From a virus (lineage: Duplodnaviria > Heunggongvirae > Uroviricota > Caudoviricetes): DNA of 12,896 nt. Shown in pieces: positions 1 through 8,177 of the stretch (its first letter is position 1; every line of letters begins with the position of its first letter). The position numbers were made by a program, and so were the translations under genes. A model generated the notes under the pieces. The model was not told where the DNA came from and did no database searches. It saw nothing but the letters and a program-made list of their open reading frames with translations. The stretch spans positions 1-12,896 of IMG/VR virus record IMGVR_UViG_2700989170_000001, one strand, 5' to 3'.

Positions 1-50
1 CAGGCTACTGTGTTTAGTAATCAGATTTGTTCGTGACCGATATGCACGGG

Positions 51-84
51 CAAAACGGCAGGAGGTTGTTAGCGCGACCTCCTG
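51..84 (-). terminator. Candidate intrinsic terminator in the late-operon leader (tR'-like)
   Basis: On the minus strand there is a perfect 8-bp stem CAGGAGGT/ACCTCCTG (plus 59-66 and 77-84) with a 10-nt loop, followed by CCGTTTTG (plus 51-58). The U-tract is short and set 3 nt from the stem. It lies about 345 nt downstream of the Q stop. Confidence 0.35.
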
Positions 85-371
85 TCACCCGCTTTCACGA
101 AGATCATGTGTAGAAGGCCGCAGCATAACTATCACTGATGAATTCAGGACATCCAGTGGCTACGGCTCAGTTTGGATTGTGGCGACCGGTGCTGATCTCC
201 GGTTTGCTGCAACTGCCTACAGCGGGCTACGTGGCCACACCGAATCCAGCGAAAGATTCTTGCCCTTACACATCAGCCTGTGCATTCACCACAACGATAA
301 GAGCACTGCGCGGCACCTTTAACCAATTCCGCGAGGTCTGCGGGTTCAATGCTCTTACCTGTTGTGCAAAT

Positions 372-412
372 AAAAAAGCCACCGTTGCAACTTAAGAGTC
401 ACTAACGGCAGC
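372..412 (-). terminator. Candidate intrinsic terminator just downstream of Q
   Basis: Minus-strand RNA would form a 9-bp stem GCUGCCGUU/AACGGUGGC (two G-U pairs) with a 17-nt loop, followed directly by UUUUUU (plus 372-377). The large loop makes this uncertain. Confidence 0.3.
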
Positions 413-429
413 TTACCTTCTAATTATGG

Positions 430-948
430 CTAAATGGATAATTGCATGTCAAGGCTTTTAACAGCAATATGCTTAACTTTCTCAACACGTTTACGCATTT
501 TGAAAGCATTTTGCATTGGCTGGTACAAAACAAATAACGACGCTTTCAGGATATCGTCAATTTCGTTTCTACAGGTTGCCAGTGAAGGTTTTCTCCATCC
601 CTCGCCACCACGTCCACACATCTTGCGTGGCTTTGCAGTCGCGTGATAGTAGGATGCAATTGCTCGCTTAGATGAACCATGAGCGTAGTAGCTGAGGAGG
701 ATGCCAAAGGCTTTCTTGTCAATGTACATGACGGAATCGACGACCTGAGAAATCAACATTCCATCATCATCATTACACATTGGCCTTGTCATAACTCTTC
801 CCGGCTCTACGCTCTCCATGAACTTCGCTATTACGCTGCTCATGCGCTTTTCCAGACGACCTGAATAAACCCATGCGCCCCACAGTTCAAGCCATCCATT
901 CAGCCAATCGTGCTGCTCTTTGGTGAGGTTTAGTTCTCTTATGCTCAT
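430..948 (-). CDS. Late-gene antitermination protein Q (Phage_antitermQ-type, 172 aa)
   Basis: The ORF has motifs I recall from the QuuD/933W-type Q family (WGAW, CNDDDGM, LLSYY). It has an SD GAGGGGA 5 nt before the ATG at 948, and its ATG overlaps the ninH stop (ATGA). It is the last gene of the rightward operon, followed by a non-coding leader, as expected for Q. Confidence 0.7.
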   Translation of the reverse strand: MSIRELNLTKEQHDWLNGWLELWGAWVYSGRLEKRMSSVIAKFMESVEPGRVMTRPMCNDDDGMLISQVVDSVMYIDKKAFGILLSYYAHGSSKRAIASYYHATAKPRKMCGRGGEGWRKPSLATCRNEIDDILKASLFVLYQPMQNAFKMRKRVEKVKHIAVKSLDMQLSI

Positions 949-1133
949 CGTCTTCCCCTCTTGCCCTGTTTGACCATCAGGACGCCGTTAACTATTACGT
1001 GACGTTCGCCTTTGCTGTCTCGGTTGTACTTGAGCACTGTTCCTCTTGCACAGGAAAGCATCCTCGCCACTTCGGTCTGATTTCCTCGTGTCTGGATAAG
1101 AAGCTCTGGTATCGTTTGAATTGTGGAGTTCAT
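945..1133 (-). CDS. ninH: NinH-like small DNA-binding protein (62 aa)
   Basis: The motif TIPELLIQTRGNQTEVARMLSCARGTV...IVNGVLMV resembles lambda NinH as I recall it (KTIPDML...GNQTEVARRLKCSRGTV). Its start overlaps the rusA stop (ATGA) and it sits just upstream of Q, as in lambda. Confidence 0.7.
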   Translation of the reverse strand: MNSTIQTIPELLIQTRGNQTEVARMLSCARGTVLKYNRDSKGERHVIVNGVLMVKQGKRGRR

Positions 1134-1492
1134 ACGTTCTCCAGTTCGGTGATTTTTATTCCAAGCCGTCCGCCTGGTACTTTCACACCACGAATTACGC
1201 GAATGTCATCGAATTGCTCGTCGTCTTCCGCAAATCCGGCGTGGATAAGGGAGTCGAGTAAACCTTTCAGGATGTTGTCGAGGTCGCGGCGGCGGGAGTC
1301 TGGAACGTCTGCGATGACTTTGATGCGGAGTCGTGATTTGGTGAAAATGTCTAACTTGAGTTGGCGGATGATTTGCTGAACGTCTTTTCGGTATTTCTGG
1401 CCTTTATCGCTGATGTAGTATTGACTCCCCCGTCTTCGCCAGTAGGTGTTCACCGACGGCGGGTAAGGAAGCGCAAACTGATATTCGTTCAT
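1130..1492 (-). CDS. rusA: Holliday-junction resolvase RusA (120 aa)
   Basis: The protein is 120 aa with RusA-like features (LPYPPSVNTYW, DVPDSRRRDLDNILKGLLDSL, GGRLGIKITE). It lies in the nin region, abutting the YbcO-like gene. Confidence 0.85.
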   Translation of the reverse strand: MNEYQFALPYPPSVNTYWRRRGSQYYISDKGQKYRKDVQQIIRQLKLDIFTKSRLRIKVIADVPDSRRRDLDNILKGLLDSLIHAGFAEDDEQFDDIRVIRGVKVPGGRLGIKITELENV

Positions 1493-7715: not shown

Positions 7716-7749
7716 GCTCTTTAACTTCGATGGGGCGCTGACAAAGCGC
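7716..7749 (+). promoter_or_regulatory. nutL-like site (boxA plus boxB)
   Basis: boxA GCTCTTTAA (7716-7724) is followed by boxB GCGCTGACAAAGCGC (7735-7749; stem GCGCU/AGCGC with a GACAA pentaloop, as I recall for P22 boxB). It lies in the PL leader, about 120 nt upstream of N. Confidence 0.6.
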
Positions 7750-7868
7750 AAACAGATACCAAACGAGATGGGTTTGGCGGTGATGTGAATTGCAGCTGCA
7801 ACGACAGCAACCAGAAGATCAGCACCTGGCGCATCACCACCAAAGCCATTTCACATGAGGAAAATATC

Positions 7869-8177
7869 ATGACGGTAATCGTGTACGGGAAATCAACATT
7901 TGCAGGAAATGCCAAAACTCGCCGTCATGAGCGGCGCAGAAAGCTGGCTATCGAGCGTGATGCTATATGCAACATCATCGATTCGATCTTCGGCACAGAC
8001 AGTGAGGAACCTGTTCAGGAAGCCCCGAGAAAACGTTTAATCCTTTCTGAAAAAGCAATATCACTCGGCAACATTCGTAACCAAAATACCGACGAATGCA
8101 GTGGAAGTATTTGCCTGCCAAACGTAGCTCTTTACGCGGCAGGCTACCGGAAATCAAAACAACTGACAGCCAGGTAA
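7869..8177 (+). CDS. N: Antitermination protein N (P22 gp24-like, arginine-rich motif), 102 aa
   Basis: The N-terminus MTVIVYGKSTFAGNAKTRRHERRRKLAIER carries the arginine-rich RNA-binding motif and resembles P22 N as I recall it. The ATG at 7869 has GAGGA upstream. The ORF-track start at 7785 would overlap nutL. Confidence 0.8.
   Translation: MTVIVYGKSTFAGNAKTRRHERRRKLAIERDAICNIIDSIFGTDSEEPVQEAPRKRLILSEKAISLGNIRNQNTDECSGSICLPNVALYAAGYRKSKQLTAR

Follow-up and report, generated by a model that had tools for sequence, protein, structure and literature searches.

What lies between the antiterminator gene Q and the lysis genes of this phage, and does the interval do more than lead transcription from the one to the others? 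The question concerns positions 1-429 of a 12,896-nucleotide (nt) stretch of DNA (the window), the IMG/VR virus record IMGVR_UViG_2700989170_000001 (Caudoviricetes), in which Q and the features that follow it are read on the minus strand. An earlier note, made from the sequence alone, took the interval for a non-coding late leader of the PR'/qut/tR' type, situated between Q and the lysis genes and containing two candidate terminators. The family of the Q protein and the annotations of phages HK75 and Sf6 bear out this identification: judged by sequence, the minus strand of window 1-452 comprises the late control region and the leader of a lambdoid prophage whose Q belongs to the phage-21 family. 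The description as non-coding holds in that no gene is present, but it is incomplete, because about 200 nt of the leader consist of two conserved RNA structures, a long hairpin (hairpin A) and a tRNA-like element (TLS). The full explanation that we favor is that a leader with a late promoter (PR'), a Q-binding element (QBE) as well as a terminator (tR') is followed, upon read-through by Q, by structured and possibly processed RNA modules; we consider it probable. Its PR'/qut/tR' part is ordinary lambdoid biology.

The Q gene (430..948, minus strand) encodes a protein of 172 amino acids (aa) that is assigned to the phage-21 family by Pfam (PF06530; 90.1 bits against a cut-off of 26, E 1.3e-25), by PHROG (PHROG 943; E 3e-93) and by the 21Q structures in the PDB (6JNX/6P18; E 3e-91). 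Window 1-1000 has 97-98% identity to phages HK629, HK75, and CUS-3, and 96.6% identity to Shigella phage Sf6 across 77% of its length; a match to it is present in 1596 of 5426 complete Escherichia coli genomes. The holin gene starts 72 nt past window position 1 in the prophage of E. coli GF66.2, the closest full-length match, and 70 nt past it in JEP4. Thus, the interval is the late leader, truncated by the window edge. The minus strand downstream of Q contains no open reading frame (ORF) longer than 38 aa, in agreement with the earlier observation that no gene follows Q on that strand. Folded as a whole, the leader RNA is predicted to reach -161.2 kcal/mol (z -4.6), a stability not attained by any of 100 shuffled sequences.

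A consensus scan places PR' at 452..423 on the minus strand (TTGACA-18-CATAAT, 11/12 matches), with the -35 hexamer TTGACA at 447..452 and the -10 hexamer CATAAT at 423..428; both hexamers fall inside the promoters that the HK75 and Sf6 records annotate. Mapped to the window, the HK75 annotations put pR' at 423-452 and Tr' at 372-413, and those of Sf6 put PR' at 423-452, qut at 377-425, and tR' at 369-413, in coincidence with PR' and tR' of the window; HK629 carries a homologous late-region annotation of the PR', qut, and tR' type. PR' lies mostly within the Q reading frame and overlaps the last codons of Q, which is why it could not be located by the earlier note inside 1-429; it is indeed not confined to that interval, but can now be placed. 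By the same token, transcription would start near 416, and 417-429 belong to the promoter and not, as had been assumed, to the leader. With the -10 hexamer numbered -12 to -7, and with the QBE numbered as published for phage 21, the predicted late start (+1) is G416 on the minus strand, and C437 and C429 fall at -21 and -13. The sequence TAAGCT that follows (410..415, minus strand; +2 to +7), which is the same in JEP4, is a putative -10-like, sigma-dependent pause element; in phage 21, the role of such an element and the loading of Q at the paused complex have been described (PMC6606751; bioRxiv 10.1101/651190).

The QBE of phage 21 is situated between the -35 and -10 elements and consists of two copies of TGAGCA with important C:G pairs at -21 and -13; H95 and R128 of 21Q are listed as positioned to contact QBE DNA (PMC6606751). 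At the equivalent position, the window has a putative QBE (428..441, minus strand) made up of the direct repeats TTATCC (441-436) and TTAGCC (433-428), which keep the 8-bp period and the C positions but differ from TGAGCA in sequence. JEP4, the Q of which differs from 21Q by one residue, reads TGAGCAAATGAGCA here (TGAGCA twice), whereas the window, HK75, Sf6, and HK629 read TTATCCATTTAGCC in the same register. In the Q protein of the window, residues 1-102 are almost the same as in 21Q and residues 103-162, its C-terminal third, have diverged; its differences from 21Q include H95R and R128N. Because the QBE sequence has changed and Q has diverged at these residues, among others, the protein and its site appear to have changed together, and it is the position of the repeats, along with the matching changes in Q, that suggests their identity as the QBE and the binding of Q to them. 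From TAAGCT (415-410) onward through tR', the window is again nearly identical to JEP4. The arrangement looks like a natural Q21 specificity switch, with a mosaic joint between -10 and +1. Phage 21 shares with the window the Q family, a promoter that overlaps the 3' end of Q, and two direct repeats in the spacer; the Q and QBE of the window are unlike those of phage 21 in that they would represent a specificity variant of the HK75/Sf6/HK629 type.

The same stretch is interrupted in HK629 (L001 2918-3621), where a 704-bp insertion occurs right after the -10 hexamer of PR', between window positions 416 and 423. With the insertion come a separate -10-like element, TATGCT (+2 to +7), a separate terminator, and a gene for an HNH endonuclease; the original TAAGCT and tR' follow it. 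The same insertion is also found in the IMG/VR loci L047, L073, L089, L117, and L118.

One of the two terminators proposed earlier, the hairpin at 372-412, proves to be stronger than it was described. As delimited by folding and by the annotations of relatives, tR' (368..414, minus strand) has a 17-bp stem (414-376) with one bulge, a single A, a CUUA loop, and a U6-A-U3 tail (UUUUUUAUUU at 377-368); its fold of -20.2 kcal/mol (z -4.4) was not matched in stability by any of 200 shuffles. An RNA ending there is predicted to be about 45-50 nt long. What follows tR' was compared among 127 homologous loci that we collected from IMG/VR and annotated phages. Among these, the sequence right after tR' and the block that precedes the holin gene are constant, and what lies in between falls into at least eight length classes.

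In the window, this intervening sequence contains the TLS (176..295, minus strand; 120 nt), which is delineated by its minimum free energy (MFE) fold, by covariation, and by R1, a model of the tRNA-like motif that was built for this analysis with an artificial linker. A closing stem, P1 (GUUGUGGUG / CGCCACAAU; 295-287 paired with 184-176), ends in GUG/CAC and is followed by the linker AAU (286-284), hairpin 1 (GCAC[AGGCUGAU]GUGU; 283-268), a variable domain of 64 nt (267-204), and hairpin 2 (ACCGG[AGAUCAGCA]CCGGU; 203-185), which abuts the 3' strand of stem P1 without a spacer. The loops of the two hairpins are complementary over six Watson-Crick base pairs, GCUGAU (277-272) with AUCAGC (196-191), and this loop-loop (kissing) helix is predicted to form the elbow. 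Every defining feature of the motif is thus present, and the hairpin 1 stem differs from the consensus GCGC/GCGC by one compensated pair. The unconstrained MFE fold of the isolated element is exactly the cloverleaf-like form, and R1 matches the window at 297-214 (29.0 bits) and 206-185 (19.3 bits, E 4e-4). Across the family, the dimensions are those of a tRNA: a closing stem of 7 bp (9 bp in the window; the eighth position pairs in only 65% of members), a D-like stem of 4 bp with an 8-nt loop, and a T-like stem of 5 bp that is joined directly to the 3' strand of the closing stem and whose 9-nt loop is complementary to the D-like loop. A variable domain of 16-154 nt takes the place of the anticodon arm.

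Known RNA families do not account for this element. ARAGORN finds no tRNA or tmRNA (transfer-messenger RNA) gene in the window and, over nine related loci, only the tRNAs of Sf6; Rfam 15 gives four chance-level matches in window 1-1200 at E <=10, none of them to RF00005, and chance-level matches only, at a permissive threshold, in related leaders and a canonical copy of the motif. A tRNA gene, the kind of embedded RNA that the earlier note had wanted excluded, is accordingly rejected, as is a hammerhead or other known ribozyme in the window, since none appears in the Rfam 15 scan. An NCCA tail 3' of stem P1 was also considered and discarded, since the region is rich in C and A but conserves no NCCA. 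The C4 antisense RNA (RF01695) resembles the TLS as a phage RNA in which a closing stem encloses two hairpins and which is widespread in proteobacterial prophages; RF01695 has no match in the window, and this identification is rejected as well. In phage P1, RF01695 matches at the immI region (68.8 bits), whereas R1 has two matches in the tRNA operon and none at c4. The C4 RNA of phages P1 and P7 is matured by RNase P. Rfam 15 has no family that matches the TLS, and a search of the literature with sequence strings and keywords found none, most subscription journals lying outside its coverage, so that an earlier description is possible.

Covariation was assessed in a set of 89 distinct sequences (A3) in which the variable domain is replaced by a linker. 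In this set, 97.1% of cells are paired as against 88.4% in shuffles, a percentage that is inflated because the set was chosen partly by required pairing; eleven pairs show changes on both sides, none of 500 shuffles reaches the observed value on any of five measures, and pairing falls to 28-53% when the partners are slid. Given this selection for pairing, stem P1 was retested with its 3' block located by sequence alone. Positions 4-7 are then paired in 99, 98, 96, and 93% of cases, compared with 89, 61, 68, and 55% with shuffled partners, and 35 different outer 5-mers occur. The loop-loop helix is invariant in A3 by construction, and variants of loop 1 were therefore sought by a separate scan, which returned mostly unrelated coding sequence and six true motif loci among the AG-filtered matches listed. 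In one of these (L404), the loops GGUCGAU and UUCGAC are fully compensated by two double changes, and in another (L441) the loops UGCGAU and AUCGCA by three; the loop variant AGGAUGAU, found at three loci, has one uncompensated mismatch.

The motif is carried far beyond lambdoid prophages of E. coli. The hairpin-1 19-mer GTGAATRCRCAGGCTGATG occurs in GTDB species genomes and in IMG/VR contigs, at least 120 of each, with hosts that are mostly Gamma- and Betaproteobacteria and in a few cases Alphaproteobacteria; some of these matches come from odd metagenome bins (possible contamination) or are chance or coding matches, but most carry the full two-part motif. R1 gives 88 matches (E <=0.001) among the first 100 GTDB loci, the motif is present in more than 80 proteobacterial species, and BLAST detects parts of it in the records of 250 phages, among them HK620, Stx phages, P1, P7, and D6. 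The TLS is a real structure that has been selected and is very widespread. The chromosome of Halomonas olivaria (L170) has an array of clustered regularly interspaced short palindromic repeats (CRISPR) in which, at the 19-mer match (1142-1160), a spacer flanked by CCGTTCCCCGCAGGCGCGGGGATGAACCG repeats consists of the motif's 5' half (GAGTGAATGCGCAGGCTGATGCGCACG...), which indicates that hosts target this conserved phage sequence.

What else occupies the slot of the TLS, and where else the TLS occurs, bears on its function. In Sf6, genes for tRNA-Asn and tRNA-Thr lie exactly between the two conserved flanks, and the Sf6 record states that phage 21 has the same tRNA arrangement. The HK75-type allele shares stem P1; its D-arm reads GCUC-AAUGGC-GAGC, and its T-arm, which is canonical, reads GCCGG-UUCGAUU-CCGGC. 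Its match to the tRNA-like domain of tmRNA is weak (20.2 bits), and ARAGORN rejects it. Together with a hammerhead-like insert in a third group of relatives (L126 group), the occupants of the slot are thus tRNA genes, a tRNA-like allele with a canonical elbow, and a ribozyme-like sequence. The late-leader tRNA genes of Sf6 and phage 21, like trnA-trnT of phage P1, are on the same strand as the TLS and have comparable arm lengths, and those of Sf6 share its flanks too; the TLS differs from them in having no anticodon arm, non-canonical T- and D-loop sequences, and no conserved CCA. Phage P1 (L367) itself has two copies of the motif (1501-1639 and 1930-2035), which come right after tRNA-Asn and tRNA-Thr and before tciA, in the C1-controlled tRNA/ban operon, where the sole annotation is a hypothetical ORF between the copies. 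Overall, a tRNA gene lies within 300 nt in 17 of 147 motif loci, and in all 17 it is on the same strand as the motif.

The genes next to the motif vary. It is found downstream of unrelated Q families (PF06530 in the window, the lambda-family PF03589 elsewhere), upstream of a P21-type holin or small terminase, and, at several loci, immediately upstream of N-like genes that encode an arginine-rich N-terminus. The window itself has a reduced second copy in its N-gene leader (7777..7840, plus strand; R1 29.5 bits, E 2.8e-7), between a P22-type boxB (GCGCTGACAAAGCGC; 7736-7750) and the start of N (PF25694) at 7869, and in the fold of this copy (z -5.2) the closing helix measures about 19 bp. An RNase III-sensitive stem is said to occupy the corresponding position in the lambda N leader. 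These contexts, namely the Q and N leaders and the tRNA operon of phage P1, tie the motif to leaders of antiterminated operons and to tRNA operons.

The second conserved structure, hairpin A (290..366, minus strand), lies between tR' and the TLS and was recognized by folding and comparison. It has a basal stem of about 19 bp (CACAAC.GGUAAGAGCAUUG / CAGUGCUCUUAUCGUUGUG) and a variable apex, and its fold is predicted at -32.5 kcal/mol (z -4.3). The basal stem is constant among relatives, in which it bears at least six unrelated apices, one of them in lambda. A 19-bp helix right after tR' is an obvious target to consider for RNase III, and hairpin A is accordingly a candidate RNase III site. RNase III processing sites have reportedly been described in the lambda late transcript (Daniels et al. 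1988, cited in PMC7547250). The 3' strand of hairpin A overlaps stem P1 of the TLS by 6 nt (295-290).

Several observations concern the apex and surroundings of hairpin A. In a group of relatives made up of L126 (7185-7231), L063, L081, and L120, a complete hammerhead-like core of type I (CUGACGAG...CGAAAC...GUC) is found within the apex; with 24.7 bits it stays under the gathering score (34), and its MFE fold shows the three stems. In the window, the apex (309-346, minus strand) reads UUGAAC CCGC[AGACCUC]GCGG ... GAAAGGUG, which is weakly like the 5' half of the tRNA-like motif; R1 gives 12.3 bits on it (window 298-357) and 12.4 bits on the HK75 copy, and its loop ACCU could pair with a downstream AGGU. 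The apex may be a degenerate relative of the tRNA-like motif. Just after the U-run of tR', the sequence GCACAACAGG (358-367, minus strand) contains CACAACA, the bases of which form the 5' strand of the basal stem of hairpin A. CACAACA is the consensus target of the R1 seed of the small RNA GcvB, used by the prophage-encoded anti-small RNA AgvB (PMC4104026); that paper gives no locus matching the leader, and so offers no identification of the leader with AgvB. In PhiR5_2 (L008), a Stx-like phage, three copies of the Rfam small RNA STnc100 (RF02076), two strong and one weak, lie on the minus strand at 273-482, 547-722, and 758-951, downstream of the shared leader block.

Taken together with the biochemistry of phage 21, these features suggest how the leader might work. 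In the absence of Q, RNA polymerase would start near G416, pause at the -10-like element, and stop at tR'. Once loaded at the pause, Q would let polymerase pass tR' and about 440 nt of further untranslated leader and so enter the holin gene, and hairpin A and the TLS would then act as folding or processing modules of the antiterminated RNA. As a tRNA mimic, the TLS could be recognized by tRNA-processing enzymes, with an RNase P cut at the 5' edge of stem P1, and RNase III could cut within hairpin A; either cut would detach the part of the leader nearest the promoter from the late message. Such processing is supported mainly by the equivalence of the slot occupants in relatives. More specifically, and only tentatively, we propose that the TLS may be an undescribed, widespread class of phage tRNA mimic, placed in N and Q leaders and in tRNA operons, in which a Watson-Crick loop-loop helix replaces the elbow; it would be recognized by RNase P, and cleavage would sever the antitermination-site RNA from the message or release a stable small RNA that has its own function.

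A number of points weigh against this interpretation. Both transcript ends, a start at 416 and a stop close to 368-372, are predictions, and the QBE is unlike the characterized phage 21 site, so that Q binding is likewise putative. RNase P or RNase III cleavage of this leader is a proposal. The basal stem of hairpin A is kept by sequence identity and so offers no covariation, and because it shares 6 nt with stem P1, the two helices cannot both form fully at once. As for the TLS, the control with an independently located 3' block covers stem P1 only, and the element departs from a tRNA in having no conserved NCCA, a closing stem of 9 bp in place of 7, and a T-like loop of 9 nt in place of 7.

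The interval might also be explained in other ways, two of which concern the parts of it that lie outside hairpin A and the TLS or on the opposite strand. The hairpin at 59-84, the other terminator candidate of the earlier note, belongs to a conserved pre-holin leader block (1..175, minus strand) that is truncated by the window edge; window 1-181 has 95% identity to lambda 44936-45116, upstream of S, and CUS-3 annotates the equivalent block as the boundary sequence 'bsq3'. The 8-bp stem of the hairpin is real (CAGGAGGU/ACCUCCUG; 84-77 with 66-59, around a 10-nt loop) and is nested within an outer stem (92-87 with 51-46). It is possible to regard it as a backup to tR', a weaker terminator that Q also overrides, given that the stem is GC-rich (10 bp in lambda), that UUUU follows it at a distance of no more than 3 nt, and that the block is conserved in lambda, the late leader of which is reported (Luk and Szybalski, 1983) to contain tandem terminators. 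However, the U-tract is inadequate: the tail CCGUUUUG (CCG-UUUU-G) has only four U's, set 3 nt off the stem, compared with the minimum of five in 8 nt that we applied, and these U's are predicted to lie inside an internal loop of a longer structure. The fold of the 92-46 hairpin (-22.5 kcal/mol) has a z of merely -2.4, with 4 of 200 shuffles as stable, and the consensus scan is silent here. A simple terminator scan passed over both this hairpin and tR', because it limited loops to 3-8 nt and disallowed bulges. Of about 100 relatives, some 40% have G-C or U-A at the pair G82:C62 and some 60% have a mismatch there; it is the sole variable pair of an otherwise mostly invariant stem, and covariation in this hairpin is therefore rejected. 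Positions 62 and 82 are a polymorphism hot spot, with G, A, or U on one side and C or A on the other in nearly all combinations, the majority of them mismatched. A backup terminator at 59-84 is thus improbable, and only tR' appears to be a credible intrinsic terminator. We regard as extremely improbable that the 85-aa ORF on the plus strand (138..395) is a real protein transcribed antisense to the late operon. The frame is open and starts with ATG, and automatic annotation of PhiR5_2 and Huey has placed hypothetical proteins on that strand in the equivalent interval. Nevertheless, it has no Shine-Dalgarno sequence upstream, as the earlier remark on its missing ribosome binding site anticipated, and neither Pfam nor PHROG has a family that it matches. 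Of 15 distinct alleles with this type of leader, just 5 keep the frame open, and it then ends at 67, 85, or 95 aa; in other allele classes it is absent or in other frames. Spanning hairpin A, the TLS, and part of tR', its sequence is accounted for by RNA structures of the opposite strand, and the ORF is best seen as a chance one.

The remaining two alternatives concern the TLS. If the interval after tR' were a mosaic recombination joint with no RNA-level function, in which frequent homologous recombination keeps the flanks similar around a slot that tRNA genes enter and leave, the TLS would be a decaying tRNA pseudogene. The annotation of the flanks in CUS-3 as boundary sequences (bsq3 and bsq4), the 93-98% identity of these flanks across phages that differ in Q and lysis genes, and the many length classes of the middle part are all in keeping with this, as are the genuine tRNAs of Sf6 and the resemblance of the HK75 allele to a damaged tRNA. 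A pseudogene would not, however, be expected to preserve two almost unchanging loops and covariation in four helices throughout Gamma-, Beta-, and some Alphaproteobacteria, nor does a lambdoid joint fit the occurrence of the motif in N leaders, in the tRNA operon of phage P1, and upstream of small terminase, or its constant strand relative to neighboring tRNAs. The absence of any RNA-level function is consequently hard to credit; a role of the flanks in recombination may exist alongside the RNA function. Alternatively, the TLS could be an independent small-RNA gene, the product of which regulates in trans or acts as a decoy for a tRNA-binding host factor or defense nuclease. Its extreme conservation across hosts, its presence within tRNA operons, the Halomonas spacer directed against it, and the GcvB seed target just upstream of it, of the kind used by AgvB (PMC4104026), would be consistent with such a role. 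There is also a precedent in StxS, a short RNA from an antiterminated phage promoter that acts in trans (PMC7547250). Against it, the consensus scan detects no promoter-like site between tR' and the TLS in the window, and tR' would block transcription of the TLS in lysogens. The replacement of the anticodon arm, moreover, varies in sequence and in length (16-154 nt), which makes a specific decoy for an anticodon nuclease unlikely. We therefore consider an independent gene rather unlikely and prefer to see the TLS as a module of the antiterminated leader RNA.

Comparison with lambda indicates which parts of this leader are shared and which differ. Lambda has the same leader layout, with 94-95% identity to the window over the 32 nt that follow tR' and the 181 nt that precede S. 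It retains the base stem of hairpin A, stem P1 (with one compensated pair, UGUGCUG/CAGCACA), and the 'GAAU' junction, but lacks both conserved hairpins of the TLS (R1 10.6 bits), and its Q, QBE, and tR' are unrelated to those of the window. The terminated late RNA of lambda is also longer, at about 194 nt. Among other tRNA mimics, the tRNA-like domain of tmRNA, the bacterial Y RNA YrlA, and the tRNA-like structures of plant viruses resemble the TLS: they have an acceptor/T-arm stack and form an elbow, and they carry a large insert instead of an anticodon arm. The TLS differs from them in that its elbow is a predicted 6-bp Watson-Crick helix and not a set of T-loop/D-loop tertiary pairs.

The value of the PR'/tR' part lies mainly in correct annotation of the region, while the Q protein and QBE of the window would represent a natural Q21 specificity variant in which protein and DNA site have apparently changed together. 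The TLS is the more valuable result: a compact motif with strong covariation, in the leaders of classic antitermination operons, that is carried by phages as well studied as P1, HK620, and the Stx phages and yet is missing from Rfam 15. If tRNA-like processing of the leader is real, it would explain why tRNA genes, the TLS, an RNase III-type hairpin, and a hammerhead-like insert alternate at one slot of the late leader. In that case, the role of the long untranslated late and N leaders, an old question in these phages, would become directly testable.

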